DNA of 64,000 nt from Phoronis australis. Its lineage: Eukaryota; Animalia; Phoronida. The notes under the pieces were generated by a model that was given only the letters and a program-made list of their open reading frames with translations, did no database searches and had not been told where the DNA came from. Location of the stretch: positions 186,001-250,000 of the forward strand of contig NMRA01000513.1 in the NCBI GenBank assembly GCA_002633005.1, read 5' to 3'. The position numbers were made by a program, and so were the translations under genes. Of this stretch, positions 28,160 to 63,759 are shown in pieces (the stretch's first letter is position 1; each line of letters opens with the position of its first letter).

Positions 28160-31100
28160 TTAACTGAAAGAAAAAAACAAATGGTTTACTCACATTGTAT
28201 CAACAACAACAATATCATACAGTGAAAGTATATTAAAGGTTGATTATCGTCGAGAAAAGAGAACATTTTTCGAAATAAGTCTCAACAGGGAATCAAACCT
28301 GTAAACTCCGCGGTCGCAATCTAACGTTCAGCGAAATCCCTCTCTTTAGATGCAGGTCTCAGACCATTTTAAGAGTAATTAGATGATAAATGCACCGGCC
28401 TCAATTTCATAAAACGGTGAGAATTTTCAATTTTTAATAAGAGCACATAAAACAACAGATTTTTTTTTGTTTTTCTTAAAAACTATAATCAAAGCTAACT
28501 GTTTCAAGATAGACGTCAGTCGTACACTAATCCGAAGAAATGCGTGTTTGCCCGTTGAATCGCTCGGGTCTCATTTAGCCAAGTTGTATCATCGTTGAAA
28601 CAAGATTTAAATAATGTTTATCCTTGGAATCACGCAGGCACTAGTGGACATCGTATACATTAACACAAGCAACTGCCCAACAAGCAACTCGTAACAACGA
28701 GAAAACACGAGATCATCCAATAATACGCTAAACCAGGCCAATGAAGTTAAAGCGTCTTGGGAGTAATTTCGAGATCATGGTTCCGAATCTAGCAAAATAT
28801 CCGCTCCTGAATTGAAGCAATTGATCTTCTAGGCTGAATATGGGTTAAAATTCACATAGAAGATTGTTGGCTCCCAATGCCTTGAGGATGTGTTCCGGAA
28901 AGAACCTCAGATATTGCTGCACTGACCAACGTATATATATAACCGTATTAGGAGCACATGTAATCTCTTGTCGGTGTCGACTGTCGCACAACACCCCTTA
29001 ACTCTAACACACGAGCGTTTGCTTTTATACAGTTGGTATACTTACGATGAATATTTATTGAACATCTTCGTGAACTCTTCTTTATCAACCACACCATCCC
29101 CGTTAGCGTCCCCGCTCTTGATCATATCTTTGCCGTCATTGTCAATACCAAAACCACCGAGGAGTTTATGGATTTCGTCGTCGGTGATCTTTCCATCATC
29201 GTTAGTGTCGTAAGCCGCAAAGGCATCGTCCGCCTTGAACGAGTTATTTTGCATCGAGCTGAAAATTAGGCCACGTGAATCATTTCTAATAGACAAAGCC
29301 TTTACGTTTAAAACTGATTACCAAATTCTGAATGCAAATTGTGCAAAACATTGATAGAACGATTTTGATAAGGGCTGAGTAGGTTGTTCGCCTGTTAGTC
29401 GCTTATGACCTTCTTGTTATGGGATAAAGTATGTAGATGAGATAAATTACGCCCTGATGACGTCGTAGCCAAGGGCACCATAATCTTATGTTTGTAATTG
29501 ACCTATCGCAAGCTCTGCCCCCTTGCAAAATGTCGACAAACAAACAATAAGTTTTACCTGGTAACGTGCTGTTTGTCGGGTAAAATGGAGGCTTGGAAAC
29601 GAAGGTGTGTCAAGAATGCTGCGTCCTAATTGGTCGGTCAAGCCGTCACTCAAAATCCTGGCGATAGGTCAGTTACGTTTACAGGAAAAGCCCGATTGAA
29701 AATGCATGCTTAGCTTAATTTTATTGTAACTTTTTCTTCCAAACTGCAATGCTCGAAGACCATAAGAAACCGTTAAATATTTTCAAAATCAACAGCGCCT
29801 ATTACGTGCGACTTAGCCACTCACGAAATAATTTTGGATTGTCCGGCTTCAAACTCGGCGCTGTCGACGCTGCCATCTTTGTTGGTGTCGAACTTCTTCG
29901 TAAATTGTTCGGCATTGTTCTTTGCATCGTCGTCACCTAGTCCTTCAGATTTGTAGCCTTTGATAACTTCATCGCTTGAGATTTTTCCATCGTGATTGTC
30001 ATCAAGGACATCGAACGTTTGCTTTGCTGTAACATGAAGTTGTTCTTTGCTGTCACCGCTACAAAAGAGATGATTATGTAAATCTTGAACCAACGTAAAA
30101 ATTTATATCATAAACATTTTAAGCCAGGTATACACGCCATGCTTGTGACCTCCGTGATAAAATGTACATTATCGTAAGTTTCCATATTGAGGAAACAAAG
30201 ACTACTGAAAATTTGAATCTGTGTCCAAAAAGTCTAAAAAAGGTCTCTTTCGGAGGATATTAGTGGAGATTTTTCGTTATTGCCGACTACGATGCCCTCA
30301 TTTACCAGTGGGCTTTAAAAGTGCCGAATCAATTACCTGCACATAAGATTAAAAAATCAAGTGACAGAAACTGGCACGTAGGGATGACATGCATTCATAG
30401 GTTCTCATCAAGACTTTCAATTCGAGTTACAATTTAAGTTAGCAATTGGAGTTTGTTCTCATTTTAAGCGTGGATTATAGTTGACACAGTAGATGTTTTA
30501 ACCTGTGATTGACAGTCAGACATCACATAACAGTTGCCTAGACTGGTCATCGGTAAACTTGAGTTTTGAAAGAGCAATGCCACATTTTCCTTAACTTTGC
30601 CTCTTGTCTGAAATGCAACACGTTCCCGAAAGAGCCCACATCCCAATGGGAGCTTTTTGCCCTTGTTCTCAAAAGAGTCCCATTGTTTCACGTTGGTGAG
30701 ACTCTCAGAAACTCCCGCTATAGGGAAACCACGCATTGTCGGCAGGTGAAACTTTTCCATCAACACATATATCCAAGCAATTTTCTGAGATTAAAAGAGT
30801 CGTGAGTGTCATTTGTTGGTCATGGTGCCGTGGCCCGTCAAATGAAAGCAAGAGACCTGGCCTACAGTTGTCTGTCCTGTATACTGGGTAACTGAATTGC
30901 TAAAGTCAGCTGAAACTACTCCAACCCGGTGAATTATTGGATATCAATTGGGTTATCCCTTAGTCATCTCATGAAAAGGCGTAGTGATGTATCAGGGAAT
31001 GCTTTATATAGTGTCAAAGGTTGATTCTTTTAATGATCCATGTTATTCAAATACAGAAAAGTTTAAAATTTGTATATTTTGAGTCTGTGAATAACAAAAA

Positions 31101-32741
31101 ATCTGTTTTTGCTATGTTAAGATGGGTTCGGATGTTTTTAGAGTGAGTCTGGTATGCGCGGCCTTAGATATAAAATTTCATAAAGGTATGAAATAATAGA
31201 GACTGACGCCATCGATTTAGTGAGGAGCTGTAAAAAATCTTTGCAAGCCAGTAACGCACTATACAACTGCTACCGTTTGTACAATTCATATCCATCCAAT
31301 TGTTCCGTCAGAAAGTATTGTATATTCTGCTTACTTGGCCAGTTTAGACTGTTCGTCTTGAAATTCCTGCTTGGTGACACTGCCGTCTCCATCACCGTCG
31401 AAGGTAACCAAGAACTGCCTGGCTTGCTGATTGGCGACATCGCTGTCAGCACCTTGAGATTTCAGATAGGTTGTCAACTCTTCCTGCGTGGCTAGTCCGT
31501 CGCTATCTTTATCAATGGCCCCGAAGGTTTTATCTGAGTTCTTCGTCACTGCCTTGTTTGTCTTCTTGGTCAACTTTTCTTTTGGGTCAGCTTCCGAGGT
31601 ATCTTCAGCACGTTTTCTTGAACTTCCCCTAGAAAACGAAAAGAAATGGAATTGAAAATAAACACTTTTGCCAGACATTATTAGTAGCTATGGAATAATT
31701 AGCATAAAACCTCCAAAACGAGGCTTACTCCGGAACCATTCGGCCACAAGCCTGTTGTTCACATTCGCATCAATACACATATAATACCCACAGGGTCCTC
31801 GAACACTAAAACGCGTGTCTAACCAATGTTTATAGATTCTCATCATTCGTTCCATCTGTCATAAAACTCTGTCCAAGGTTTTGAAAAAAGAATAGTTATG
31901 AAGAAAATGATATTTTCAAACGTAGTTCGCAATACAAATCTATGTTCCCATTTTACTCCATGTTCACGCCATTTTTCAATGCTTAAATTATGACCTTAAA
32001 TCCTGAGTTTTGCCGGAGCAATTCAGCACTTTCTAGTTTAAAATTTCAATACTTGGCCAGTTTAAACTGCATGTCTTCAAATTCCTGCTTGCCGACTTTG
32101 CCGTCTCCATCACTGTCGTAGGTGGCCAAGAACTGCTTGACTTGCTGCTTGGCGACATTGTTGTCAGCACCTTGAGATGTCACATAGTCCATCATCTCTT
32201 CCTGCGTGGCTATTCCGTCGCTATCTTTATCAATGGCGCCGAAGATTTTATCTGAGTTCGTCTTCACTGCCTTGTTTGCCTCTTTCGTCAACTTTTCTTT
32301 TGGGTCATCTTCGGAGGTATCTTCAGCACGTTTTCTTGAAAACGAAAAGAAATGGAATTGGAGATACACTTTCGCTAGACACTACTAGTTGCTATGGAAT
32401 AATTAGCATAATACCTCCAAAACGAGGCTTACTCCGGAATCATTCGGCCACAAGCCTGTTGATCACATTCGCATCAATACGCATCTAATACCCACAGGGT
32501 TCTCGAACACTAAAACGCGTGTTTAACCAATGTTTATAGATTCTTATCATTCGTCCCATCTGTCATAAAACTCTGTTGAAGGTTTTCTTAAAAAGAATGG
32601 TTATGAAGAAAATGATATTTTCAAACGTTTTTCGTGATTTAGATCAGTTTGTTCCCTTTGTTTCCCATGTTCACGTCCTTTTTCAATGCTTAAGTTATGC
32701 CGGAGCAATTCTGCAATTTCTAATTTACAAATTCAATAGTG

Positions 32742-32786
<45 letters not shown>

Positions 32787-35700
32787 NATCTCTTCCTGCG
32801 TGGCTATTCCGTCGCTATCTTTATCAATGGCGCCGAAGATTTTATCTGAGTTCGTCTTCACTGCCTTGTTTGCCTCTTTCGTCAACTTTTCTTTTGGGTC
32901 ATCTTCCGAGGTATCTTCAGCACGTTTTCTTGAAAACGAAAAGAAATGGAATTGGAGATAGACACTTTCGATAGACACTACTAGTTGCTATGGGATAATT
33001 AGCATAATACCTCCAAAACGAGGCTTACTCCGGAATCATTCGGCTACAAGCCTGTTGATCACATTCGAACAATACGCATCTAATACCCACAGGGTTTTCG
33101 AACACTAAAACGCGTGTTTAACCAATGTTTGTAGATTCTCATCATTCGTCCCATCTGTCATAAAACTCTGTTTAAGGTTTTCTTAAAAAAATGGTTATGA
33201 AGAAAATGATATTTTCAAACCTATTTCGCAATTTAGATCAGTTTGTTCCCTTTGTTTCCCATGTTCACGTCCTTTTTCAATGCTTAAATTATGCCGGAGC
33301 AATTCTGCAATTTCTAATTTACAAATTCAATAGTAAGGTATATATAACTTTAAATGAGCAAAAATTCCACATCAGAAATTATGTTACATGTTTCCAGAAC
33401 GTTTTCGTGCATCGTTATCACATTCCCAAGGAACCTTTACCCTGTGAGCTGGACAGAGATATCTGCGACACTTTGGTCATGAAACCCAGCATCATTATTC
33501 CTAGAAAGTTTTTATTGTTAATTAGAGTACTTTTACCAATTCTTGATTTGTAATTTGTTGAAAAGATTTAAACCCAGCAAATGCTGTTTACATAACCCCT
33601 TCTAAGCGCAACAGCATAAAATTTGTCAACAAGTTTTCTTTTAAAATCTTGAGTGACATTATTAGCAAGTCTGCTCATCTATAAAGGTAACCGCAACATT
33701 TACATGTACATGTAGACTTTAACCAAGAAAAATTACAAGTTTATATAAGATCTTATCTACAAGACTGTGCGTTCTGCCTAATATCTACAAAACTTAAAAT
33801 TTAATTTGGTAGAGCTGTATATTTTCTGAAAGTGCACGTAAAAAGCCTGTGGAATCTGACTTTTTACTTTGTATCAAGTTTTTATTGATTGGGTTACGAT
33901 CCCGCCTTTTAGTAAAATTTAGCAAAAAAAAGAAATTTATATCAGCGGAACAGCAATGGATACAACAAAATAACGAAATTTTGTTTGATTTTTGTTGGAG
34001 ATGAATGTTTAAAAGCGTAAAAAGTGATTCTTTCACATAATTCGATGCTTATTTTAACACTTCTATTAGCATAAATTTAAGCAAATAATTAGAACCAATA
34101 ATCTTGAGTTTCTTGAGCCTATTGCATCGGTCATCATATGAGGCCTAGTGAGAGACTGTATCTGTGTGATGTGGTAGATTTTGAATGAATATTCAGGAGA
34201 ACGCGTCAACAAATCAAGTGAAAGCTTACGAGATGGTCTTGGAATTGGCCTCCTGGAGCTCTGCCTGGTCGATATTTCCGTCTTTGCTGGTGTCAAGTTT
34301 TGTCATAATTTCTTTAACTACCTTCGCGTTGCTTTCATCATCGACACCATTCTTTTTCAAGAGAGCAGTAACCTCAGCCGACGTAATTTTCCCATCCTTG
34401 TCAGTGTCGAGGGATTTGAAAAAGCTCTTTTGTGCTAGAGCAACGGTTGCGTTCCTGTCTCCCCTGTGGAAGTTTTGGAACATTAAGATTTTGTTTAAAA
34501 CAACTCAGAAATTAAGCTAAATTCGAAGTACATGTTTCCCATAGAGCAGTTTCTTTCTCTGTGTCCCCTACGGAATACTTTGTTATATAGATATTCTCAA
34601 ATTGTTTGACATCAATACACATGTAGTGACATAAATATTGTTTGGTATCAATATTGGGTGATCTAAATAGGTTGTAGTAATGTTTTCAATTTATCCGTGG
34701 ATGCAAAGCATGAAAAGTATTGACTACTATTATGTAATATCAATACAGTGTGATGCCAAAAGTTGTCGTCTTACAAGTTCCCTACATAGACGATCCCATG
34801 TAAATAGTTCATTTCAGAAATACATTGAAAGTGGTATTTTTAGTTTTTAGGCATATAAGTTTTATTTAGCGGTTACAACACTGAATAGGTAAACAAATAA
34901 ACGTCTATAAAAATCTCCCTGACATCCACGTTTTAACAATAAAGACGGAATAGGTAGGCGAGTAGGACAGACGAACGCTACCAACAAAACCCGTCAGCAC
35001 GCCGATTGAGAGCTCACGCAGACATTTCCTCCTACGTCGTGCTTAGTCGTGCGTTTAGCTTAGTAGATCGACGAAGTTAGTCTACCTTTTCATGTCATCA
35101 CTGCGCATGAGCGACATTAATACTCACTTGGCTAATATGGTTGTAACTTCCGTATACTCCTCCTTGTCGACGCTTCCATCTTCGTTGGTGTCGTAGGCAT
35201 CAATAAACTGTTGAGCCTGTTCTTCGGCGTCCTTCGACGATGATGTCGTGAAATCGTCAGTGGTGATTTTGCCGTCACCGTTTGTATCTAGAGCTTCAAA
35301 CCCTTTGTCTGCGGCCTTGCCAATCGCTTCATCACCCTTCTTCTTTATTTGCTCTATGCTAACCACATCTGATCGCTTGCTCTTAGCAACACTGAAAGAG
35401 AAGGTGGGTGACTATGTGAGCCTTGGACAAACGCTTCGGCTTCGTAGTAGTGAAACAAGTGTCGTGGGGCGATTCCCGAAGAATCGTGTTTCCTTTGGTT
35501 TATAATTATTTCATACCATACATCTCCTTCCTACTTTAATCGATCAAATGATTTGGTTTTGGATATTTTTGCAAACATTCCACAATACTGACTTCATGCC
35601 AAAATCAATTATTTGACGTAACCGTCCGACCTCCAATCGTTTTCTTGTTCCACCTCACACCAATATTAGCGCCTAACAAGGTAACTGCTTTTACTGCCAC

Positions 35701-38226
35701 TACATTAAAAATGTGCGTTTTGGTGGCTATCATCGATGAAAGCCCCTTTTTTGCAACTTCCATGTGTTTCTTTTCAATTAAATAGAGCTATTAACAAGGG
35801 CCCGGGGGTTTAATCTACTAGTACTCGAAATCGAAATCGAAATAATTTTAGCATTTTCCATTCTAATTAAATACATATTCAACGTAAATACGTGTTATCC
35901 GTAGCATCATGGTTTACGTGGATCACTGGGTAATCATGATTGCATTGGATGACTTCAGCATTAACACTATGAATTCGAGTGTGAGATTGAAATCTGAAGT
36001 TTTTATAAGAAATTTCGAGTTTTCACTCGAGTTTGTTTGCATCTTGAATATAGGGCTCGCCATTAACGAAGTTTGACTTTACGCCTAATTTGCGTATTCC
36101 ATCCTACTCCGGAGCTCTAAATTATAGATCATTGGCTTCAGTTCGTATTACAGAAGAACGGAAAATGGCATAAATATTTTCTAGTTCGATTAAAACCATT
36201 AAACCCCTGACCTAGGTGTGGCAACAATATTATCGCTTTGCATGTTCACGTGCGTATGTTGGTGACGTCATTGTCATGAGGACGTCTTCATTAGCTTTCC
36301 CGGATGATCAACTTACTTTGCGTGAATGTTGGCATCGTGTAGGTGGTGGTTAACAGACTCACTACTTCGTAGAACCCCGGCACTGAAAACAAACGCGAAG
36401 ATCGTCAACACTCGATACCGTTTCAGCAGATGAATACACCTACTGACACCCCGTGTGCACAAAATGCGTGTATTCCAAATATTCACTACAGAAATTCTTC
36501 AAACAGCACCCCATACTCCTCCCCAAGTTTGGAACGAACTTATCGCTGCCTCTAACACTCAACATAGAACACAAGTACAATGCATGTTGAATTCAGATTA
36601 GGTGTTTTGGTACTTGAATGCAAGTACAGAATCGAAAACAAAAAAATCGAGTCGTGAGCAAATCCATGACAAACAAACTAATTTTTGTATTGCACTCAGT
36701 GAAGACTCGATGGCAAAATACAAATTGCTATTAAGATAAAGGTTTAGTGGTGAATATGCCACTTGGTCATTAGCCTGACTGAGTTCTATACTGCACGTTT
36801 GTTTTGATATCAATGGAACTAGTGACCAGCTTTGACTTGACCTGAAAAGTCATTTCTAATAATACGGCAATACATCACCAATTTCGAACAAAAAATAACA
36901 GGAAATTTTTTCGTTTTCAAGCGCTTTTAGTATTGTTGTGAATGGTCACATGGTAAATATGGTGCAGAACTTTAACACATATAAAATAAAACAATTGCAG
37001 GCGGCCTGATACACGTTGTACCAGATGTGCGCAGGCCTCGCATGTGGGCCCATTGCACTGATCACCTGGAAATATTTTTAACTTTAACACAGGGTGACAT
37101 AGATTTCATGGAAAAATGATAAAATAAAATTCCTCTTTTCGGCCATGTTGTGGTTTAAACTGAGGAGATTAAACCGTACACAGTCCACGTTTTACAACCA
37201 GTCATCAGGGCATAGGGTCTAAATGTTTTATTCGAAATCGAACTCGAATTTTTTTGTAACATTTCCCATTCTACTTTAGTACGAGCTCAAAACTGATGCA
37301 TATTATTCTGTATTCGAGTGAAATATGGTTTGCCTGGTCCTGGATGACAGCGTAATTCTATATGGAACTTGATAGCACCAGCATATAATCTATCAATTTA
37401 TGTCTGAACTTTAAATGGCGAGTTTTTACTTGAAATAGTGAGTTTTCACTAGAGTTTGTAGTCAATTCCAGGAGTCATCAAGTGCAAATTTAGACCATGA
37501 CACTTGTTTGTGTAAGCCGCAATGAAATTAAGCACAGAATGATAAAAAATTGTCTTGATGTCATATTTATTAAAAGAAAAATAGAAACAGTAAAAATATT
37601 TTCCCCGAGTTCGACTTCCAGTAAAAAGATTAGACCCCGGGCATAGGTCATGCACTTGTTTTAGAGGTCCTTTTTGAATATTTGTATAGTGTTAGGGATA
37701 TATTTAGTGGGCAAAAACCCATCACCATGTGTTTGTGCTGCATTTTGAATTCATGGCTCCGTTTCCTGTTTCCAAATCTCCAAACAAATGCCCTGGGGCT
37801 TAATATCAGAAAATCTATAGCGAAAGGCGCATTTTACAGAAAAAAAGAACTGCACTTGTGAATTTGACGTGCCAAGTATCGCCAACGGTGAATACAAAAC
37901 CACTACATATATTTCGATTTGCTAACCATTCGGCTGGTTAGATTGTTTTGCCAAAGTGCAACGAAAAATTGCTTGTACGTAACAAATATAACGATAACCT
38001 AAAAATAATGAAGGTCAAAAATCGGCAAAAGAGCCATCGGGGAACGTGAACAGGTGTCGAGCAGGTTATGTGATTCATACTCACATACTGCCAAGTGAAT
38101 GTGTTCATTTACCCCCAATCATATTCCTTAAACAAAACCGTTTGAATACTTTTCAGTCGAGTGCTTTACTCACCGAACGCTGCTGCAGACGATCAGCAAA
38201 AGGCAAGCAACAGGCAAGCAGTTCAT
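28160..38226 (-). CDS. Gene A: secreted multi-EF-hand calcium-binding precursor (about 525 aa, 6 EF-hand pairs). Exons: 38174-38226, 35128-35391, 34230-34463, [32788-32928 partial at gap], 32053-32334, 31335-31628, 29825-30058, 29046-29258, 28160-28163
   Basis: Signal exon cag|ATG MNCLPVACLLLIVCSSV(R)|gtgagt. Every internal exon is a multiple of 3, phase 2-2, and carries two DxD/NxDG loops. The stop is formed as TC|T TAA after the last intron. Confidence 0.85.
29046..29258 (-). CDS. Gene A last EF-hand pair exon
   Basis: DTNDDGKITDDE..DANGDGVVDKEE; cag / TC|GTAAGT; 213 nt. Confidence 0.88.
29825..30058 (-). CDS. Gene A EF-hand pair exon (short GD type)
   Basis: GDSKEQ..DDNHDGKISSDE..DTNKDGSVDSAE; tag / GTGAGT; 234 nt. 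Confidence 0.88.
31335..31628 (-). CDS. Gene A EF-hand pair exon (long type, RKR)
   Basis: GSSRKRAEDT..DKDSDGLATQEE..DGDGDGSVTKQE; tag / GTAAGC; 294 nt. Confidence 0.88.
32053..32334 (-). CDS. Gene A EF-hand pair exon (long type, KR)
   Basis: KRAEDTSEDDPKE..DKDSDGIATQEE..DSDGDGKVGKQE; aag acceptor, weak GTATTG donor; 282 nt. Confidence 0.75.
32788..32928 (-). CDS. Gene A partial EF-hand exon copy cut by assembly gap (real duplicate or second haplotype)
   Basis: Near-identical to 32194-32334; ends at N 32787 next to (TA)n. Confidence 0.4.
34230..34463 (-). CDS. Gene A EF-hand pair exon 2 (short GD type)
   Basis: GDRNAT..DTDKDGKITSAE..DTSKDGNIDQAE; 234 nt; cag / GTAAGC. Confidence 0.88.
35128..35391 (-). 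CDS. Gene A EF-hand pair exon 1 (long type, KR site)
   Basis: VAKSKR-SDVV..DTNGDGKITTDD..DTNEDGSVDKEE; 264 nt; cag / GTGAGT. Confidence 0.88.
35798..36212. mobile_element. Harbinger-like MITE family (GGCCCGG..TAATC..TACTCGAAA ends), decayed copy
   Basis: Similar termini and internal CTCGA repeats to 44315-44704 and 37214-37640. Confidence 0.5.
37214..37640. mobile_element. Same MITE family, decayed copy
   Basis: GGGTCTAAATGTTTTATTCGAAATCGAACTCG ... CGAGTTCGACTTCCAGTAAAAAGATTAGACCCC. Confidence 0.55.
38174..38226 (-). CDS. Gene A signal-peptide exon MNCLPVACLLLIVCSSV
   Basis: ttttgttccag|ATG ... CG|GTGAGT; same layout as gene B exon 62531-62574. Confidence 0.75.
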
Positions 38227-40528: not shown

Positions 40529-40685
40529 CAATGGCGGATTTAAGGGAGGGGGGACAAGGGAGGCATGGTGCCTCACTAGATGTCTTGCAGATTCTATTTG
40601 AAAGTTTGGGGGTGCGAATATCTGGCGGGCAAAATCCTAATACTCGTCCCTGCCCCCCCGACTCAAAATCCTGGATCTGTCCCTG
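40529..40685 (+). mobile_element. About 160-bp MITE (CAATGGCGGATTTAAG ... ATCCTGGATCTGTCCCTG)
   Basis: Homologous to 52762-52911 and 20190-20348. Confidence 0.65.
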
Positions 40686-40707
40686 ATATAAACTCGGGCT
40701 CCGTCCA

Positions 40708-42245: not shown

Positions 42246-42316
42246 CTTGTAACCTCTATCTCTCTTTTTGGACAAAGACGTGTGGACTGGTGTCAATTTT
42301 GTACCGCGTTTTTAAA
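42246..42316 (-). promoter_or_regulatory. Putative gene A core promoter and non-coding exon 1: TTTAAAAA (42309-42316), Inr CCA+1GTC (A at 42288), donor AAG|GTAAGT at 42245
   Basis: 28-nt TATA-to-Inr spacing and a strong donor; mirrors the gene B layout. Confidence 0.55.
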
Positions 42317-44314: not shown

Positions 44315-44704
44315 GGCCCGGTCTCTAATCTTTGTACTCGAAACTATTTTTGGCAATTTCTCTGCTCCTTTTGTGCGAACTTAAGATAATTGGTTATCAG
44401 ACTGTGCTCAAATACATTATAGTTTATGCATAGGAGTTTCTAGTTCAAGTTTGCCCTTGAAGACCCTTATATTCGTGCTACAAACTCGAGTAAAAACTCG
44501 AAATTTCGAGTTCAAACTCCAACTTATTGCTATAATATTGGGTTTACAAACTGTGAACTAAGGGCAACAACTTATCTACGTAAGTTATTGTATACTCGAG
44601 CATAGAATAATAGACACTTATCTTGAGTTCGCCCAAAAGTAGAGTAGAAAATGCCAAACCTAATTTCGAGTTCCATTTCGAGTAAAAAGATTGGAGACCG
44701 GGCC
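44315..44704. mobile_element. Harbinger-like MITE with CAG target duplication
   Basis: CAG|GGCCCGGTCTCTAATCTTTGTACTCGAAA ... TTTCGAGTAAAAAGATTGGAGACCGGGCC|CAG. Confidence 0.8.
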
Positions 44705-52665: not shown

Positions 52666-52761
52666 CCATGCCCGGTAGCTTGCTTTGTTGTGGTGGCCGT
52701 TTCAACCCTGGTTCTTTTGTTTTCTCACTTCGTACTCTTAGTAAGGAACATACTTGCCATA

Positions 52762-52911: not shown

Positions 52912-55294
52912 TATTGAGACTTATTTTGTAGCAGAACTGATTTTAAAATCAAAAGTTGATTAATTTCTTTTGTCACCTCTGGTATATTTGATAGCCATTT
53001 CAATTTCCACATATTTTTTACTTTTTGAACTCTATTGTAATTTATCGTTATGCATTGCTCATGTCTTATTTTCTGTTGTATCTGTGAGAGGGCGCTCTTG
53101 GCAAATTGCATTATTCGTAAGAAGTTGACATACCGTATGTCGTGACCGGATGATATTATCCAATACAGAAACAGGTAAGATCACCTTAAAGTCCGATAAT
53201 ATTTATAAAAAAACACCAGCTTGATCCTTAGTGGGTGCAACACTTCATCAAGTATGAAGACAAGTGACACGAAATGCTTACTTAAGCTAAACTGTTCAGG
53301 ACTATAAAGTTGAGGAACTATTTTTACGGCTTTATCTCTGAAGAGGTGTGCCCTCAATTTCAGTCGTGTAATACAGTGTACTAGCAGACTTGTGTAAAAG
53401 GGATGCTGGGATTTTAGCGGATCATTCTGAAGTTGCGTTTCAATGTATGCATTTCATATCCTGAGCTAAAAGCGAAAGTTCCACAGTGTTTACCTTGCGT
53501 CGATAAATACAGTGTTCCGGAAGAGTCAGGAAAAGATCATACATATTGCATGCTATATACTTTATTTGCTAATTAAACAGTGGATGATATTACAAAACAA
53601 AATCCAACGAAAGAAAATTCATCAACAGGCATGATAAGCAAAATGACTCCTCTTCTACGTGAAGCCGCAGAGGGAATTTTAATTTTCCTTTGCACAGCAG
53701 CAGCTGCATTTAACAACTCAGGACCATGCTTCAAGAAACGTGAGATTGTTGTAAAGTTACATGCAATTCGTGCTTCTGCAATCCTGCTCAAGTTTTCTTT
53801 GACCAAATCTTACATCTTGCCATGTCCAATGTGAAGTGTAGAGTACTACTTTTCAAACAATGTCGTCAATAATTCTAAAAGCATTTGCGAATAGGCAGTA
53901 ATTGTTGTTGTTGTCACAGTGGGCGATAGATGTCACTCACGATCATAAGGAAGTCGTCTGCTTGAACACATTATGTTGATTTCAATAAACTTTCGTAGCA
54001 GTCGTCCTTCGCACCCTCTGAAAATTCAAGTATTTTTGTTCATAAACAGTTTCTTACGTAGTCTGTGTTGTTAAAACAGTATCTCGTTGGCGTAATTATA
54101 CTCATTTGCCATCCTTTGATGAACAAAAAAATCAAAAGTAATGAGGCTCTGGTCACCCGCTTCCTCCGCGCTTGAACAGACACAAGTTTCGTCACCTCGT
54201 CTAGTTAACATATACCACGATTATAAACGTAAGTTCATCTCAAATTGCTTGGATTATTCGCAAAAAGGTAAGAAGGCTGAGAGGTTAGGTCCATATCAGC
54301 AAGTGAGTGATGAAAAGAATATTGACGTAACATGTTTTTGTTCCTAGCCAATCAGTGCGTAAAACGTGTTCCCTCAATATGACTATCTTGCTAGTGGTGA
54401 CACAATTGCGTTAACTGGATTCCTAAAGACCCATTTGGAGCTATCTTTTAAAAGAATCCTCTTGGTTCATGAGTCGGAACCCTTTCGAATACGGTGAATT
54501 AGTGGTTTTCACGAGATAATACCATAGTCCGAATGGAACTCACTGATTGATTTTAAGGCTGGATTCGTCACCGCTTACTTGGTTTCATCCAGTTTAAGCC
54601 GTGTGATTTCTTACCTAACACGACACGAGTCTTTAGGAGTTGGTACGTTTTTCCAGTGGATAGTTAAAAACATATGCTCTTTCGACAACGGCACTGGGCG
54701 AATCTACTGACACAAAGGGGCTGCCCTGAGTATGAATTGTGTTCAGAATACGTTCTCGAAAAACTGATGCAAAGTGAATCACGAAACGCTGTCAATTATT
54801 AAAGTTACACTCAGATTTTCCCGCATTACATGGCCATGCGCCTGAATCCAATAATAATAGGTTTTGTCATGCAACACTTATTTTGCTCAAGTGTACGTGG
54901 CAAATATCAACTTAAATGGAAACTGAAGGCGACCAACCTTTGATTTGAATTGTGTGTGTCTTTTGTTTCATGTTAGTGCTTTCAGCTTTTACAGATGACC
55001 TTTAATAGAATGACACGTCCAATACTTGTCGTTTTGTAAGGATTAAATACCCGGAATAAGCCATTGTTCAGCTTGTTCTTTTAGGATTTGTTCTTTGTCA
55101 ATTACTCAAAAAAGTCCCATAAACTGTGAGCCTAACTACGAATTTGCGTGTAGGATCACATGGCCCTAAATACGTACATGCAAAACGTTGGTCGTGAGAA
55201 CTACTCCTGATCATAACTCTTTTATAAAGCTGGCTATTTTCTTAGACCAACTGCGTATGAATAAGTAAATCTTGAGTGAAAGTGGAAATACGGA

Positions 55295-55385
55295 TCACAA
55301 ACATGGTTGAGTCTGGTCAGCACGTCACCTAGGTTTTGATGTGGCCAACAGGTGACGTGCAGACCAAACTTAAACCTGATTGTGA
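55295..55385 (-). other. About 91-nt imperfect hairpin just downstream of the last gene B donor
   Basis: TCACAA..GGTT..TTGGTC-T-GCACGTCACCT [loop] AGGTGACGTGC-T-GACCAG..AACC..TTGTGA. Confidence 0.7.
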
Positions 55386-55431
55386 ACTACCTCAGAACTT
55401 ACGCTTTTTCATTCCTGACGGTATCAGTCAT

Positions 55432-55492
55432 CTAACTTGATTCTTCCTTCTCAATCTCTTTCTCTTCTTCTTTCGCCTCTTTCTCTTCTTCC
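55432..55492 (-). CDS. Gene B last coding exon (truncated copy of exon 7): EEEKEAKEEEKEIEKEESS*
   Basis: Same acceptor as 56507; homology breaks at 55440; TAG; donor GTAAGT at 55402. Confidence 0.75.
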
Positions 55493-58400
55493 CTAAACGG
55501 AAAATATAATTTCATCCAATTGTGTATTGCCTCGATTGTGCCCTCAATACAGATGTGGATTTTGTCTTACATCACTTTCTTGATTATGGAACAGAACAGT
55601 TCGGTTTTCTGCAGTTGCTGAACGGACGCAGTGTTTCAAGAATTTAAAAGTGTCGAGGACAGCACAATATTTCTCAAAACTCTTTTCGGTGTTCGGACAA
55701 ATTTATACTCACTTGGTAGTGTCCTTTACCCTGAGAGATATTTTTCGCTTGTAATGTCAAAACATCAGATATTATTCGAATGTGCAGTGCATAAATGTAT
55801 GCGTAGCAAAAAGAATCATACAAGATTCAAACTATTGAAAACGTGAGAACTTACGTGATTTGTTTGTCTTCGTCAGCCTCAAACGTTTTCTTGTCGATGC
55901 TTCCACCCTTCAAGATTTGTTTAACTAGTTCGTGGGCTGCATCTCCACCCATACCTTGAGCCTTAAGGTTGGCAACTACCTCATCGGTTGAGACTTTTCC
56001 GTCTTTGTTGGTATCGAGAACGTCGAAAGTTTGATCTTCTATCACAGCTTCGTCTTCTTTTTTGTCTCCCCTGGAATAATGTAAAGGGGTTTTCTTACAT
56101 TTGACTCGTATACATTATTGATGAACCTTTTCCAACAATAATATGAGGTTCATGAAAAGTTACATATGATGTGTGTTTTCCAAAAACTAGTTAAAATTGT
56201 AAAAACTTACTTTTCCAACTTGGCTTCAACAGCCTCAAACTCTGCCTTGTCAATACTCCCGTCTTTGTTGGCGTCGTAAGCCTTCATTGATTCTTTAACG
56301 GCAATGTCGCCTCCTGATGGGTTTGCTGCTTTTATTTCAGCACCTGTAATTTTTCCGTCTTTGTTGGTGTCAATGGACTCAAAGGTCTTATCTTCGTCCT
56401 TAGCTACATCTTTTTCTTCCTCAGCCTCTTCGCTGGCCAAGTCTCTTTTCGCTTTTTCTTCCTTCTCAATCTCTTTCTCTTCTTTTTTCGCCTCTTTCTC
56501 TTCTTCCCTAAACGGAAAATACAATTTCATCCAATTGTGTATTTCCTCGATCGTGTCATAAATACAGATAGCTATTTTGTCTTCCAGTATTTTCTTGAGT
56601 ACGGAACGAAACCGTTTGGTTTTTCTGCAGTTGCTGAGCGAACGCAGTGTTTCAAGAATTTAAACGTGTCGAGGGCAGTATAACATTTCTCAAACTTTTT
56701 TTTGGTGTTCGGACAAATTTACACTGACTTAATGGTTTCCTATACCCTGTCAGATTTTTTTGCTTGTTATCAATCAACGACTTGCAATTTAGCGTATGAA
56801 AAAATAGCACAAAATATCCAACAGCCAAGTTCACACTTTAACACTCACACATTTTACTTGCAGTACTGACGTTCATGAGTGAATGTACATGAAATGTATA
56901 ACAAAACATCGGATATTATTCGAATGTGCAGTGCATACATGTATGCGTAGCAAAAAGAATCATACAAGACTCAAACTATTTAAAACGTGAGAACTTACGT
57001 GATTTGTTTGTCTTCGTCAGCCTCAAACGTTTTCTTGTCGATGCTTCCACCCTTCAAGATTTGTTTAGCTAGTTCGCGTGCTGAATTTCCATCCATACCT
57101 TGAGCCTTAAGGATGGCAACTACCTCATCAGTTGAGACTTTTCCGTCTTTGTTGGTATCGAGAACGTCGAAAGTTTGATCTTCTTCCAAAGCTTCGTATT
57201 CTTTTTTGTCTCCCCTGGAATAATGTAAAGGGTTATTCTTACATTTGACTTGTAAACATTATTGATGAACCTTTTCCAACACTAAAATGAGGTTCATGAA
57301 ATGTTAAACCTTATGTGTGTTTTCCGAAAACTAGTTAAAATTGTAAAAACTTACTTTTCCAACTTGGCTTCAACAGCCTCAAACTCTGCCTTGTCAATAC
57401 TCCCGTCTTTGTTGGCGTCGTAAGCCTTCATTGATTCTTTAACGGCAATGTCGCCTCCTGATGGGTTTGCTGCTTTTATTTCAGCACCTGTAATTTTTCC
57501 GTCTTTGTTGGTGTCAATGGACTCGAACATCTTATCTTCGTCCTTGGCTACATCTTTTTCTTCCTCGGCCTCTTCACTGGCTAAGTCTCTTTTGGATTCT
57601 TCTTCCTTCTTAATCTCATCCTCCTCTTTTTTCTCCTGTTTCTCAACACCCCTAAAAAGAAAATATGGCCATATGCTATTCTATGTTTCCTGGAGGGTAT
57701 CTCAAACAGAAATGTGAGCTTTGTATTGCCCCCGTTAACACAAATATTGAACAGAATTGTTCGGTCTTCTGTAACACCTGCAATCGTAACACAAATTTCG
57801 AAGTGTCGAGGACAGCCGCTTCACTGAATAGGATATGTTGGTACAAGAATTTCTGTCTTTTCTCTAGACTGTCTCAAATTCGGAAAGAAAAATTACTGTA
57901 CTATATGTTTGCACTTCCTTGGACTGTTCAACATGAGGCTTCATCCCGTGAAACTAAGACCTTGGCTTCTGCATTCTTTCAGAGTATGAAACAAAAGTTT
58001 ATGGAAGATTTACAAAAGCATTAGAGCACACGATTAAAGCTCTACTGTTGACTTGAGGTGAAAGCTTTTATTCACGAGATACAATCATTTTGTCAGTAAA
58101 CAAATATTGACCTTCGGGCATATGTGACATTGTCTTTGGGATTCATCCCTATTACTATATTTTTGGTTGAAAATAAGATCTAAAAGGTATGTTAAGAAAT
58201 GTGCCTCTTGGAAACGAAGGTAGGCAGTTATACGTTGTTTAAGTGCATTTGGTTTAGAAACAGTATCAAAACTGAAACTCCACGAGATCTTGCTTGAACA
58301 TGGGGAGTAGGTAAAATATTATTTCGAGACAGACTTAAGAGCTTACTCAAATACTTTTTCTTCATCTGCTTCAAACTCTTCCTTGGTAACAGCACCGTCT

Positions 58401-61400
58401 TTGTTGGTGTCATAGAAGTCCATGCTTTCTTTAGTCTCCTTGGCAGCTTCGTCTTTATCAAGGCCACTAGCTAAGAGGGCGGCATTTACTTCAGCGGATG
58501 AGATCTTTCCGTCCTTGTCAGTATCGAGAGAATCGAAATTTTCCGTTACGGCCAAAGCAACATCTTCCTTTTCGTCTCCACTGAAATTGACACAATGGAG
58601 TATTATCGAAATTTCCCCAAAGTAGTTGAGGACACTTGGTTTTTGCTTAGGAAAAATTTTACAATGGTTTTAAAATATTTATTCGGTGCGTACATGTACA
58701 TGTAATCAGTAGATAAAACTCACAATGAACGAAATTTTCTCCGTCTTTTCGTTTGCTTTCGAAACAAAGCTATTCAAATTTAGAAGGCATTCGGACTGTT
58801 ACTTAAGGGCGCTAGGCAACTACAGGTAAGTAATACATGATGAGTGATGAATGGTGCATACACCCATATGTTTTCTTGTTTCCATATGTCGGTAAAAACG
58901 ATGAAGCGCGCTTTTCAAAATACAGCTCGACAGGTAAAAAGTCCACAGCCAAACTTTGTTAAGATTGAAGCAAATATTGAGAAATCTGGCAAATTTTATT
59001 TCCGGTCGGCCAACAGCACTTGCTGGACGTGTGTGACACTGTAAGAACGCTGCAATTGACGCTTGATATTTTAAGAAAGCACGAACTCCTCCCTTACCAA
59101 TGGAGGAGAGTACAGCACACATCACGAATTTTTGGCCGACCGGTCGGAAATTGGTCGACGACCGGCCGTCGACCGGTCGTCTAGCCGACCACCAGCCGAC
59201 CAACAACGGTCGGCTAGGAGCCGTCTGCTTAGTCGCCTCTGTGGTCGGCACTTGGGTCGGCTAATTGGTCGCCTNGCTCGACAGGTAAAAAGTCCACAGC
59301 CAAACTTTGTTAAGAATGAAGCAAATATTGAGAAATCTGGCAAATTTTATTTCCGGTCGGCCAACAGCACTTGCTGGACGTGTGTGACACTGTAAGAACG
59401 CTGCAATTGACGCTTGATATTTTAAGAAAGCACGAACTCCTCCCTTACCAATGGAGGAGAGTAGGTATTTGCCACTGTGATTCCCAATTTGTTAAACGAT
59501 ATTGTAGTGAGACACCCCGTTGCTGCAGTGGAAGCAAGTGGTCTCGCATCATTCACTTGTTATTCATATAGATATCTGACCAAACCCGAAAAAGTAGTCC
59601 ACAGTAGAATACAGCTTTGAATAAGTGCACTTCCACCAGTCTAACCCTTGTTTCCATATCTTCACAAAGGAATTTTAGGGTTATTTCATTACAGTGCATG
59701 TGTGCGCTGGGTGCTTAGCTAGTTTTGGTATATCAGTGTTTCACACCACGTTTTTCAATCTAGCCAGATGTCGTCCTATCAGGTTTACTGTGCATACATC
59801 AAGCTTTTGGTTCTTCCGCGTTTGTCACGTGGGTTAATTCGATATCTATATGAGGTTAATATACGGGTTCTTTTACTATTCTACTTACTCTTCCTCTTTT
59901 TTAGTGACAGCGTCAAACTCTTTCTTAGTAACTGCCCCGTCTTTGTCTGCGTCATAGTCGTCCAAGAACTCTTTTGCTGTCAGTTTGGCGGCAGCATCAT
60001 CGGCATCTACCTGGTCTTTGGCTGCAGCCTCGATCTCAGCGGCTGTGATTTTTCCGTCATCGTCAGCGTCGAGGTCATCAAAAGTTGCAATGTCTGCTAG
60101 AGCCACCTGTTCGTCTTTGTCGCCCCTTCGAGAAATATTGTAAGCTCAACAGTACAAGTAATAAAACTCACAATGTTATATTTAAGGGTTATTTATTTTG
60201 TAGTACATGAAATACTTTATAATTTGACGACTTACCTTGTTGAGAAAAGTTTCCAGTAATCGAATATATCTGAGATATAAAATGGTGTGAATTAAAACAA
60301 GTGCTGGCATGTCAGTTAATAATTGTTGAAGATATGATTAATTGAAGATTCAATTTTATATAACTTTTGTTTTCGTGATTTCTGTATTCTCTCGATCAGC
60401 AATTCTACGCATTTGGATTTCAAATGCAATTTTATCATATTCTCAAACTACATGTTCATGTATTTGCAGTCTCATTTTGGGTTATGTACTTACTTTTCTT
60501 CTTTGTCCAGAACAGCTTCAAACTCTTTCTTGTCAACTCCCCCACTCTTGTCGGTATCGAAGGCGTCCATGACCTCTTTAACCGTCTTCTTGATTGCAGC
60601 TGAAAGCATTGATTTGAGCTCACTGGGAGTAACTTTTCCATCACCGTTGGCATCGATACGGTCAAAGCTGTCATCTTCTTCCTTATTGTACTCTTTTTCT
60701 TCTTTCTTTGCATCTGCTTCTTCTTCTTTTTCCATCTTTTTCAGCTCTGGTCCTCCTTCCTTTTCCTCCTCTTTCTCAACCTCTTTCATCTCTTTTTCCT
60801 CATCCTTCTCTTCTGCCTTGATCTCCTTCAGTTCTTTTCCCATGCCTTCTTTTTTCATTTCGCCTTCCATTTGTTGTTCCACGGTCTCCATGCCTTTTTC
60901 GCTTTCGGATTCTCTGTAAGAATAAATGCAGTATGTCAGCAATTGCCACCATTGTAACCATCTGAGACACCTTCTTTGAATCTTGAAATGAAGTCTTCGG
61001 TTTCTTCTACTCCGCGTTTCGACTGACAATTATCCTTATTCGCGACAAAATTACCATCCTCTATCGCATCGAATACCACAGCTGATATTATACAAATGTG
61101 CAAACATGGCATCTTTATATAACACAAAACGCATTGTTGATACGTAAGGTCTGCTGCCACATTTTTAGAGGAACGGTTGCGAGCACATTGAACGATGTGG
61201 AATCTGCGTTTCATGAAGTGTCTGATGGAGATTTTGAAAATTCTAGGTTTTCACACCTTCCTATTTGTACGTGTTCAAGACAGTTTCAGATTATTTTCCT
61301 TCGAGGACATCGCAATTTTTCGATCAAAGATCCAGCAACAAATGTCAATTACGTGTACAAGTATACACATGTATGTTCTCTAAGTGTTGCAATGAGCATT

Positions 61401-62574
61401 GGTCATGTATTGAATAGAGCGTCAGTACATGAGCGTGTGTTGTTCCAAACTTATGAGGAGAGTCCATGGGCGTTAATGTAGATAGAAATAAGCGTTGTGT
61501 TCAATTGCACTTGTTCTAGTTTTCAACGCTTACTCTTCTACTGCTTATTGCTAATAATTGCGAGTATATAAAGCTGTTGCAATTTTATCAAATGGCCATT
61601 ACGATTTATTGGTTCATTTGGCACACACCAATTTTGAAATTATGCATTCAGTCACGAAACCATGAACGTAAACCACTTACTTGCGAACTGTGTCGAATTC
61701 CGTCTTTGAAACACTGCCGTCTTTGTTAGTGTCATAGGTGAGCATGAACTCTTCGACTACTGATTCAGCAGCCTTTGAAAGGATTCCCTCGAGTTCATCG
61801 GCCGTAACTTTTCCATCCTTGTTTGTGTCGAGTTGTTCAAATTCCTTCCCTTCACCCTTTTTGAGCTCTGCCTGCTCTTTCGCGCCTTCCTTTTTCATCT
61901 CTGCTTCTTCTTCCTTGAAGGCATTCCTTCGCAATACCCCGGCGCTAAAAAGAAGACAGTTTAGACGTCAGGCACAGCAGCACGCACAGATGCTGACACG
62001 AAAACTTCGAATTGCTCCTCCTGCGTATAAGCAAATGGGTTTCTTGCTTACACAAATAATCGTATTATTATCGGGCTGTTTAAATTTACACATTGTGCCG
62101 CACTACAATATTACTTATTCACTGATCGCTTCTCTTACAGGATTTTTACAGCGAATGTGCACGGATTGATAAAACACGGGGTAATAAATAGCGACTATTT
62201 TGGGAAGTTAAAAAGAGTTTATCAAGTACCATACTACTAGCTAAAATCTAGTCAAAGTCACGTGCTCTCATTTAAAATACACGGCAATGTCTCACGTAAT
62301 CACTCATAGTCTTGCTTTTTAGAGAGGTCCTAGCGTTACTGAAGGGGAAGTAGGAATACGGTGACGCCACTTCACTTACGTCGCTTCCATAGGCCAATTT
62401 TGTAGTCAAGAACGGCTGGTGAATATTAACTGATTTTGAAAGATTTTAAAGATAACGGTACATTGGTATTTTTAGTAAAAAATACCACAGAAACTTCATT
62501 TGCCCTAAAGTTTGAAACAAATTTACTCACCTGCACAGGGCAACCAACAGACATGCGGCGATCAAGTACTTCAT
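55432..62574 (-). CDS. Gene B: secreted multi-EF-hand calcium-binding precursor (about 761 aa, 8 EF-hand pairs). Exons: 62531-62574, 61681-61944, 60494-60913, 59889-60125, 58347-58580, 57355-57651, 56999-57214, 56211-56507, 55855-56070, 55432-55492
   Basis: Signal peptide MKYLIAACLLVALCSA-GVLRR. All internal exons are phase 2-2 multiples of 3 with GTAAG(T/C) donors and DxN/DxDG loops. TAG stop at 55432-55434. Confidence 0.88.
55855..56070 (-). CDS. Gene B exon 8 (duplicate of exon 6)
   Basis: 216 nt; offset 1144 bp from exon 6. Confidence 0.88.
56211..56507 (-). CDS. Gene B exon 7 (duplicate of exon 5)
   Basis: KAKR-DLASEE..; 297 nt; offset 1144 bp from exon 5. Confidence 0.88.
56999..57214 (-). 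CDS. Gene B exon 6 (short; second EF loop deleted)
   Basis: DTNKDGKVSTDE..ILKGGSIDKKTF; 216 nt. Confidence 0.88.
57355..57651 (-). CDS. Gene B EF-hand pair exon 5 (long, KR)
   Basis: ESKR-DLASEE..DTNKDGKITGAE..DANKDGSIDKAE; 297 nt. Confidence 0.88.
58347..58580 (-). CDS. Gene B EF-hand pair exon 4 (short GD type)
   Basis: GDEKED..DTDKDGKISSAE..DTNKDGAVTKEE; 234 nt. Confidence 0.88.
58925..59463. repeat. About 188-bp duplication across the N gap at 59275; first copy followed by a GC-rich transposon end (59113-59274) inserted at TA
   Basis: Both copies end GGAGAGTA; only the first continues CAGCACACATCACGAATTTTTGGCCGACC with many CCGAC/GTCGG subterminal repeats. Confidence 0.75.
59889..60125 (-). 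CDS. Gene B EF-hand pair exon 3 (short GD type)
   Basis: GDKDEQ..DADDDGKITAAE..DADKDGAVTKKE; aag acceptor; 237 nt. Confidence 0.85.
60494..60913 (-). CDS. Gene B EF-hand pair exon 2 (long E/K-rich linker)
   Basis: DANGDGKVTPSE..DTDKSGGVDKKE; 420 nt. Confidence 0.9.
61681..61944 (-). CDS. Gene B EF-hand pair exon 1 (long, RR)
   Basis: AGVLRRNAFKEEE..DTNKDGKVTADE..DTNKDGSVSKTE; 264 nt. Confidence 0.9.
62238..62349 (+). mobile_element. Partial about 150-bp MITE in gene B intron
   Basis: AAGTCACGTGCTCTCATTTAAAATACAC..TCCTAGCGTTACTGAA shared with 52143-52294. Confidence 0.65.
62531..62574 (-). CDS. Gene B signal-peptide exon MKYLIAACLLVALC
   Basis: ttacag|ATG ... AG|GTGAGT. Confidence 0.85.
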
Positions 62575-63679
62575 CTGTAACAAACGAAGGTAAGCCCTGA
62601 AGTAATTTATGAAAACTTGTGTCACGGCTACACCTCTGTGTTTATACATGTATATAGGTCGTTGAGCACAACGCTGCCTTGCAAATGCTACGGTAAAAGG
62701 TAGCCCATTCATTACAAAATTCAGTTGACGTTCATTACGCAATTTTCATACGCTATGGCAACAAAATTATTCTATTCAAATTTCCTTTTAGCGTAAATCC
62801 TCTTTCTGAACTTAATTATCTTATATTGTTTGGAGAAATTTACTTGTAAAAAAGTGAAATTATGCGACTCCATGACTTGTGCAATGTTCGGTTGAAAATT
62901 ATGTGCAAAAACGGAATTCTGGGACATGTGATCACGTCATAAGCATCTTTTGTTACGCTTAATTTTGCTGGTTGTTACTACATGTATTCCGTCATTACTC
63001 TGAAGCAGGAGTTTGGTTTCTTTGTCAAATTTTATTTCTCTGATTGCAGACGGGAAGAATGCAGGTTCGACAATCGATGAAGTCTTAAGCGCAATCCCAA
63101 GATTTTGATACGGTACCAAAAGTTCATAAGTAAGAGCCCTGTATGAGTGTTCGTAATTAATCAATTTTTTATTTGATTTATAAACCTAAGCCTAATGGTT
63201 CGGGGCCTTAAAATGGAACTTAAACATCAATTCTTGATGATGTTCAAGTACATGTAGCATTGTCGTTTAGTTCCTGCTATACAGTATCACAGTTAGGAGC
63301 ATGCAAATGGTTTTAAATACTGGCGAACCACTTGCAGTTGAAAATCAAAAATACAAATTCGTCAGTTAGTTCAGGCTTTGTCGAAAAGATGATGTTGATT
63401 TTGAATAGATTATTTTGCGTTGATTTTAGTTATTTTTTAGATTAAAAATCAAATTAAAGAGTATTGTTAAGCCACACGATAGCAATTTTCATTGACGGCG
63501 AGATTACGACAGTTTAAATTTATGACCAGTTAAAAATTTTAACTGCACATGCGCAATATACTGCTCAGACAGGTCCCTTTCACTGACAACGGACCAAATT
63601 GTGCGACCTGGATTTTCTAAACAGAGCCCCTGGATTTTAAAAAACAAACAAACAATGATAACGAAGTAAAGTCACTTAC

Positions 63680-63759
63680 TTTGTCTTCTGAATCCGTAGA
63701 AGTCTTTTGGAACTTTCGATGGATGAAGTGAAGTCTTGAATCTTGCACCCCTTTATATA
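63680..63759 (-). promoter_or_regulatory. Gene B core promoter and non-coding exon 1: TATATAAA (63752-63759), Inr TCA+1CTTC (A at 63729), donor AAA|GTAAGT at 63679
   Basis: Canonical TATA 30 nt upstream of a perfect YYANWYY initiator, then a roughly 50-nt exon. Confidence 0.75.

Follow-up and report, generated by a model that had tools for sequence, protein, structure and literature searches.

Two paralogous multi-EF-hand genes of Phoronis australis with phase-2 module exons and a predicted secreted, possibly processed, product

Two spliced genes on the minus strand

The window analysed here is a 64,000-nucleotide (nt) stretch of Phoronis australis DNA (assembly GCA_002633005.1, contig NMRA01000513.1, positions 186,001 to 250,000 of the forward strand), and all coordinates below are counted from its first letter. 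It is intron-rich eukaryotic DNA with a G+C content of about 40%. A strict EF-loop pattern scan, which covered six frames of the whole window, gave matches on the minus strand alone, at 29.1-35.2 kb and 56.0-61.8 kb. These matches belong to two genes, termed A and B: the product of gene A has 761 amino acids, with eight EF-pair exons and 16 EF-hand positions, 14 of which are intact, while that of gene B has 547 amino acids, with six EF-pair exons and 12 EF-hand loops.

Splice sites were first placed by hand and were then tested with four public runs, one of contigs (X1) and three of raw reads (X2, X3 and X4), which carry no tissue label. All 20 introns are present in RNA. Each of the 11 introns of gene A is seen as a CT..AC joint, with 15-51 reads in X2 and 25-69 in X3; eight of the 11 also occur in X1 contigs, and a single X1 contig carries five gene A EF exons in a row. 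In gene B, 9 of 9 introns are found as joints (9-31 reads in X2 and 5-32 in X3). The joints listed are the strongest ones, with 34 weaker joints beyond them in the gene A stretch and 41 in the gene B stretch. The first mate of exon reads lies on the plus strand, which fits minus-strand RNA. The two proteins are 33% identical over 519 columns (E 1e-53), and genes A and B are spliced, expressed paralogues on the minus strand. The first-pass annotation of this DNA had proposed that scattered minus-strand EF-hand reading frames splice into two complete paralogous genes with 12 and 16 EF-hand positions, to be checked by mapping RNA reads to the junctions; the reads uphold the splicing, and the paralogy and the EF-hand counts likewise stand.

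Exon depth in X2 and X3 is about 30-100, from 1.6-1.8 Gb read. At a depth similar to that of X2 and X3, X4 contains only 0-4 reads per joint for gene A and 0-6 for gene B, and it covers the intronic repeats equally well as the other runs. Since joints are many in X2 and X3 and few in X4, the two genes are co-expressed in certain samples and almost silent in another. A fused A-B transcript was considered and rejected: separate 5' exons and signal exons exist for the two genes, and gene A has a 3' end of its own, although the reads were mapped to two separate stretches, which could not reveal such a joint.

Exon structure of gene A

The exons are described in the order of transcription, all on the minus strand. 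A TATA-like box is seen in the sequence at approximately 63755..63760; RNA molecules end at 63708-63713 in X3 and a contig ends at 63723 in X1. The 5' untranslated region (UTR) exon spans 63680..63723, its upper end being approximate, and is spliced to the signal-peptide exon through joint 62574-63680 (15, 29 and 1 reads in X2, X3 and X4). The signal-peptide exon, placed by RNA joints at 62531..62574, begins with ATG, and its hydropathy peaks at 3.12 at residue 4. The next exon, 61681..61944, holds the end of the signal, an RR site (R21), a spacer rich in Glu and Lys (E/K) and EF pair 1. A 76-residue E/K-rich spacer precedes EF pair 2 in exon 60494..60913, which carries KK at the place where other long exons carry KR or RR. 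EF pairs 3 and 4 occupy 59889..60125 and 58347..58580, respectively, and are followed by 57355..57651, with an E/K spacer containing KR (R421) ahead of EF pair 5, and by 56999..57214, with EF pair 6. The six exons of EF pairs 1 to 6 are supported by Pfam and by RNA joints, and that of pair 5 by an AlphaFold2 model as well.

Two further EF exons, placed by RNA joints, are recent duplicates of the preceding two. Exon 56211..56507, with an E/K spacer containing KR (R592) and EF pair 7, is 91% identical in amino acids to 57355-57651, and exon 55855..56070, with EF pair 8, duplicates 56999-57214. In both pairs 6 and 8, a six-residue deletion removes the second loop. The last coding exon, 55403..55492, is likewise placed by RNA joints; it contains no EF-hand but a truncated third copy of the E/K spacer, and its stop codon lies about 30 nt ahead of the last junction. 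The 3' UTR exon, with AATAAA near its end, runs over 53561..54017 (lower end approximate), as given by joint 54017-55403 (28, 69 and 0 reads in X2, X3 and X4) and by an X1 contig piece at 53561-54017. A joint at 56069-57354 was rejected as a case of exon skipping, because the two duplicated exons share their last 170 nt without a difference, so that reads cannot distinguish them.

Exon structure of gene B

The 5' UTR exon of gene B lies at 42246..42280, with an approximate upper end, and is connected to the signal-peptide exon by joint 38226-42246 (9, 5 and 0 reads in X2, X3 and X4) and by one X1 contig. The signal-peptide exon, 38174..38226, again begins with ATG, with a hydropathy peak of 3.03 at residue 3. 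RNA joints place a 66-nt His-rich exon, a putative propeptide, at 36317..36382, between the signal exon and EF pair 1; its His-rich stretch precedes the first KR and is a possible propeptide or metal-binding tag. Exon 35128..35391 contains this KR (R46), a spacer and EF pair 1, and 34230..34463 contains EF pair 2. EF pair 3, preceded by KR (R208) and a spacer, is encoded at 32053..32334, whose weak donor, GTATTG, is the one in use; this exon is given by joint 31627-32052 (cut +1; 31, 8 and 0 reads in X2, X3 and X4) and by an X1 contig piece at 32052-32316. Its paralogue, 31335..31628, holds RKR (R306), a spacer and EF pair 4, and EF pair 5 follows at 29825..30058. RNA joints place the signal exon and the exons of pairs 1, 2, 4 and 5, the last four being supported by Pfam also. 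Exon 29046..29258 encodes EF pair 6 (module B6), the module nearest to two database proteins, P0089 and P0121, discussed below. The last exon, 28058..28163, whose lower end is that of an X1 contig piece (28058-28163), contains one coding base, the stop and the 3' UTR, so that the final codon and the stop are completed across the 29046/28163 junction; joint 28163-29046 has 19, 12 and 6 reads in X2, X3 and X4.

The EF pair 3 exon has a second, incomplete copy at 32788..32928, which is broken at an N at 32787 and enters joint 32928-34230. This copy was rejected as a real extra exon, for it sits in a 557-bp, 97% identical duplicate that spans this single N. Near-identical duplicates flank every one of the window's four Ns, at 19201 (1010 bp, 94%), 32787, 41047 (340 bp, 99%) and 59275 (188 bp, 99.5%), and the partial copy is therefore most likely an assembly overlap. 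To judge from their sequences, these flanking duplicates are overlapping contig ends, able to mimic tandem duplications.

The first-pass annotation had described each gene as a signal-peptide exon followed by one exon per EF-hand pair. The general layout stands, and is to be amended by the extra 66-nt exon of gene B and by the last coding exon of gene A, which lacks an EF-hand.

Exon phase and duplication

The 17 introns that interrupt the coding regions are all in phase 2, with one EF-hand pair per exon, so every module exon is duplicable in frame. Secreted animal modules are mostly of phase 1-1. The gene A exon pair 57355-57651 plus 56999-57214 is repeated at 56211-56507 plus 55855-56070 with 20 and 12 nucleotide differences, and for either copy of the duplicated unit there are reads with the letters peculiar to it. 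In a module tree, pairs 3 and 4 of gene B are sisters (100/99). Duplication in genes A and B is recent and continuing, and the family appears to have grown by the copying of symmetric phase-2 exons.

The last intron of both genes (55403-54017 and 29046-28163, minus strand) lies at or just past the stop codon in the same phase-2 register, which suggests that the final exon once was, or could become, another module.

Features of the encoded proteins

Each protein has a single hydrophobic segment, at its N-terminus (peak 3.0-3.1), and hydropathy does not exceed 1.19 after residue 30; the segment ends in a plausible -3/-1 site, and signal peptides were called from hydropathy and the -3/-1 pattern. 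After the predicted signal, the mature chains contain no Cys and no Trp. Asp and Glu make up 31% of the mature chain in A and 21% in B, the gene A product having a net charge of about -107 and an isoelectric point of 4.4. Leu is below 5%, and the chains consist of EF pairs and spacers of Asp, Glu and Lys. There is no KDEL-, HDEL- or HDEF-type tail at the RNA-confirmed C-termini, and no membrane segment. The absence of Cys and Trp, the C-termini and their lack of a retention signal are as the first-pass annotation had read them, and the domain search that it proposed agrees with it as well: Pfam EF-hand_1 scores above its curated cut-off in all 11 exon translations submitted, which represent 11 of the 14 EF exons, three near-duplicates having been left out.

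Across A and B, 26 of 28 positions match the EF-loop pattern. Among these 26, position 1 is Asp and position 6 Gly in every case, and position 12 is Glu in 25, although the pattern partly selects for these residues. In the AlphaFold2 model of exon 57355-57651, the EF pair has a predicted local distance difference test score (pLDDT) of 87-92 and stands behind a low-confidence helix. The best Foldseek rows for this model are calmodulin lobes, a CDPK domain and troponin C, with root-mean-square deviations of 2.2-2.8 Å and a probability of 1.00 in ranks 1-4, at 22-27% identity in the top rows. Two NCBIfam hits are generic EF-hand matches below the curated cut-offs: XopAW reaches 36 bits against a cut-off of 120 for the first member, and LanM a best E of 6e-6, in 6 of 12 members.

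Arg is scarce in both mature chains, with seven residues in each as against 121 Lys in A and 66 in B. All six [KR]R motifs of A and B fall in linkers, 25-33 residues ahead of the first loop of a pair, and none in an EF core. Five of the six long exons carry them, while in the sixth KK stands at roughly the same position; these long exons are 26-44% identical to the first row of their alignment, its recent duplicate excepted. When each linker was shuffled by itself, 6 motifs were observed in A and B against 2.1 expected (P 0.007); without the two recent duplicates the figures are 4 against 1.3 (P 0.023), and with P0089 added they are 7 against 1.9 (P 0.0003).

Relatives in sequence searches

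The first-pass annotation had recognised no named family, and the searches concur, no named full-length orthologue of A or B being among the matches listed. The profile searches were dominated by generic EF-hand proteins, and the best 120 of 3,117 and the best 150 of 91,308 matches are those listed, so further true relatives may rank below them. A single-exon homologue search gave 0 of 438 candidates at E <= 0.001.

Among 372 proteins screened, P0089, an unnamed protein from Logan, shares the highest single-domain score, 58.3 bits, with P0325, a protein with no signal-like start. P0089 has 313 amino acids, a signal-like start and four EF pairs, and its dibasic sites, KR, KKR and KKR, each stand 12 residues ahead of a pair, and Gln comes after two of them. 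P0121, which is 52% identical, retains the third site. A model of P0089, from two sequences, is of low confidence (mean pLDDT 59.7, predicted template modelling score 0.28), and the internal dibasic sites fall in its least confident segments, with pLDDT below 50. Module B6 shares 56% identity with P0089 over 64 residues and scores 163 against it, compared with at most 105 against any other window module. Judged from these alignments, kinship of P0089 to the window genes is apparent for one module, B6, only. The first-pass annotation had inferred a lineage-specific family of exported Ca2+ buffers or chelators; that the family is confined to one lineage stays a conjecture, given that P0089 and P0121 exist as unnamed relatives.

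A second unnamed protein, P0332 (682 amino acids), has a signal-like start, 12 loops, and RR and RRRKR sites ahead of its EF-hand blocks. It was rejected as a member of the A/B family: its modules are too distant, scoring just 29-77 against the window modules, and it belongs to a separate Trp/Met-rich family. Both P0332 and P0153 are unnamed multi-EF-hand proteins that carry a signal, are rich in Trp and Met and have basic sites resembling cleavage sites, and their sequences make them a candidate second family of the same design.

Two HDEM-ending matches form their own clade apart from the window modules (100/100), in a tree that contains no named animal CREC sequence. A metagenome scan returned two loci that match only 20 residues of one loop, which were not used. 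Atlas rows are generic EF-hand clusters; the nearest rows for P0089 included molluscan clusters of 133-145 amino acids (0.87-0.88), which are leads only.

Proposed processing and alternative explanations

Together, these observations raise the possibility, which we regard as about evenly poised, that A and B are secreted Ca2+-loaded precursors, likely cut by convertases at KR and RR, and that the resulting pieces, with 2-8 EF-hands each, are set free to carry or buffer Ca2+. As predicted, the products would enter the secretory pathway, the signal peptide being removed after A16 or A19, and the 14 canonical EF loops of A and the 12 of B would load Ca2+. At lumenal and extracellular Ca2+ such loops should stay filled, which would make the proteins stores and not sensors. 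Enzymes of the prohormone-convertase type would then cut at KR and RR, giving fragments 22-421 (8 loops), 422-592 (3) and 593-761 (3) from A, and 47-208 (4 loops), 209-306 (2) and 307-547 (6) from B. In granins, acidic chains help granule packing, and the acidic E/K-rich spacers of A and B may aid it in a similar manner. The pieces would likely then be released as carriers or buffers of Ca2+.

The dibasic sites, which the first-pass annotation did not mention, would make a processed polyprotein the likelier design, yet several points weigh against it. The linker test was made after the KR motif had been noticed, and is thus post hoc, and the sites descend from shared exons and so are not independent; for both reasons the linker enrichment is moderate evidence. 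In the ranking of observed over expected linker motifs among 262 multi-EF-hand proteins, A stands 14th and B 15th, or at about the top 6%. The pattern of furin sites is R-X-K/R-R, and no site in A or B fits it. The model of exon 57355-57651 puts KR within one long helix (pLDDT 51-63), which would make it a poorer convertase substrate, and Foldseek with this model gave no row at E <= 0.001. As to P0089, it comes first for B6, but for the remaining 13 modules its ranks among about 370 are 7-104; the module tree, in which 30 of 53 inner branches are unresolved, leaves its relation undecided.

The main alternative is that A and B leave the cell uncut, as acidic, polyvalent buffers of Ca2+ or as matrix proteins of a biomineral, mucus, cement or saliva-like chelator, the KR motifs being incidental to the Lys-rich spacers or serving to trim only a short N-terminal propeptide. 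This is rather unlikely in our judgement, though it draws on the same signal and loop evidence and on the strong acidity of gene A's product, and the KR statistics are weak for each gene taken singly (whole-protein shuffles, P 0.10 for A and 0.053 for B). EF-hand proteins are moreover secreted in shell proteomes, as the available parts of PMC13425148 and PMC10741955 report, and a multi-EF-hand protein of leafhopper saliva was, by the portion seen of PMC4409333, recovered at its 84-kDa size. Conversely, KR is conserved in position across diverged long exons and in P0089 and P0121, and nothing links A and B to a mineralising or adhesive tissue.

It is distinctly less probable that A and B reside in the Golgi or the secretory granules of one cell type and store Ca2+ within the lumen, like Cab45, nucleobindin and granins, being exported only as passengers. 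Granins too are acidic chains of this kind, and expression in X2 and X3 is moderate, not overwhelming. An acidic chain bearing a signal and dibasic sites is also the NUCB design, as set out in the part of PMC9004410 available. However, A and B do not end in a retention tail, and recent exon duplication with no conserved named orthologue would fit a fast-evolving secreted product better.

A role of the released EF-hand pairs as calmodulin-like sensors or signalling ligands, binding extracellular protein targets, is very unlikely. The modules share the calmodulin-lobe fold, and processed precursors often give signalling products, as with NUCB2 and nesfatin. Met-rich target-binding lobes are typical of calmodulin and troponin C, whereas Met makes up only 1.3-2.1% of A and B, about one per pair core, as against 5.5-6.6% in the calmodulin-like matches P0091 and P0034. 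Outside the cell, canonical loops should be constantly filled, and this together with the low Met content favours a store over a sensor. Finally, that the gene models are artefacts, made up of independent small reading frames, pseudo-exons or assembly duplicates, is refuted by the 20 introns in RNA, the five-exon X1 contig and the separate reads of both copies of the duplicated unit, even though the assembly does duplicate sequence around all four Ns, with one copy inside gene B.

If A and B are processed, a wider proposal follows, which we hold tentatively and with somewhat less confidence: that some animals make EF-hand polyproteins, prohormone-style precursors that release folded Ca2+-binding domains instead of peptides; these domains, multiplied by phase-2 exon duplication, would be secreted by one particular gland or cell type and would supply Ca2+ to the exterior or remove it from there. 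Such a design may have arisen at least twice, in A and B with P0089 and P0121, and in the unrelated P0332. The usual picture of EF-hand pairs is that of sensors or buffers inside the cell, and a precursor with 12-16 sites that is cut into domain-sized Ca2+ carriers would give animals a further means of packaging calcium and exporting it. Specialists in biomineralisation, mucus and gland secretion would also gain a definite candidate to look for, with fragment sizes predicted for it. Should the chains be uncut, A and B are an unnamed pair of large, predicted secreted Ca2+ buffers. With either outcome, the two genes record ongoing growth by symmetric phase-2 exon duplication.

Surroundings of the genes

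Between genes A and B lies a transcribed repeat cluster, 43936-47255, where reads from each of the three raw-read runs pile up on both strands and loose ends from interspersed repeats are numerous. On the plus strand, window positions 1 to about 17000 contain exons of a Myb-repeat gene; in the PDB, exon 3451-3642 best matches c-Myb (E 4e-22) and also SNAPC4 (E 1e-11), and from the long non-Myb 3' exons our guess is that the gene is SNAPC4-like. An 18-bp minisatellite of 27 copies lies at 14007-14573. Its minus strand reads as His/Asp/Glu-rich hexapeptide repeats behind RRKR, with one in-frame stop, and its plus strand as a 217-codon hydrophobic reading frame; it is probably non-coding. The 8-mer TACATGTA occurs in 19 copies in the window, against about 2 expected from base composition, and Rfam found nothing in the window.

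Comparison with known systems

Secreted EF-hand proteins as such are already known, as the cases of Hdh-SMP5, NcSP84, CARP1 and nucleobindin attest. Those compared with A and B are small shell proteins, CREC proteins retained in the endoplasmic reticulum, nucleobindin and one insect salivary protein, and a snail gene is said, by the title of a reference in PMC6425005, to code for putative neuropeptides together with an EF-hand region. No account of the A/B family or of an EF-hand polyprotein was found in the literature, most subscription papers and supplements (such as shell and venom proteome tables) being outside the scope. The available parts of PMC11896702 and 10.64898/2026.10.05.756843 treat calglandulin and calmodulin-like proteins and do not describe the family.

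The lobes of calmodulin and troponin C have the same canonical paired EF-hand fold as each A/B module. These proteins, however, are cytosolic, with four EF-hands in about 150 amino acids and no signal peptide, whereas A and B have low Met, a signal peptide and 6-8 pairs.

Molluscan EFCBP, Hdh-SMP5 and coral CARP1 resemble A and B, themselves predicted to be secreted, in being secreted, acidic and EF-hand-bearing, and they are linked to calcification. The sources, as far as available, describe Hdh-SMP5 as a secreted abalone shell protein (PMC10741955), secreted EF-hand proteins in lophotrochozoan shell proteomes (PMC13425148), a secreted EF-hand protein of the pearl oyster (cited within PMC6337334) and CARP1 as a secreted acidic EF-hand protein linked to calcification (PMC12960093). 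Hdh-SMP5 has only 134 amino acids and three EF regions, and repeated dibasic-spaced modules are not described for any of these shell or coral proteins in the portions seen. NcSP84, a secreted 84-kDa salivary Ca2+-binding protein of a leafhopper with multiple EF-hands, is proposed to act outside the animal, according to the available text (PMC4409333). Recovered at 84 kDa, it is apparently uncut, and it was compared with A and B by description, not by sequence.

The CREC family (calumenin, reticulocalbin, Cab45 and ERC-55) shares with A and B a signal sequence, multiple EF-hands and an acidic chain. RCN1-3 and calumenin have, by the part of PMC12516920 available, a signal sequence as well as six EF-hands in about 315-330 amino acids, and an HDEL or HDEF tail. 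In contrast to six EF-hands and a tail, A and B have 16 positions in 761 amino acids and 12 in 547, no tail, and one pair per phase-2 exon.

By these features, genes A and B encode neither CREC proteins nor calmodulins nor nucleobindins. The best model of how they might work is nonetheless nucleobindin-1/2, a protein with two EF-hands. Common to both are a signal peptide, dibasic sites and EF-hands, a combination that the available text of PMC9004410 describes for NUCB precursors. No NUCB name is among the matches listed, and A and B lack a nesfatin region and a leucine zipper, as judged by composition and not by direct alignment to NUCB. While nucleobindin has a leucine zipper and few EF-hands, and its known active product is not the EF-hand part, A and B consist almost wholly of EF pairs and spacers.

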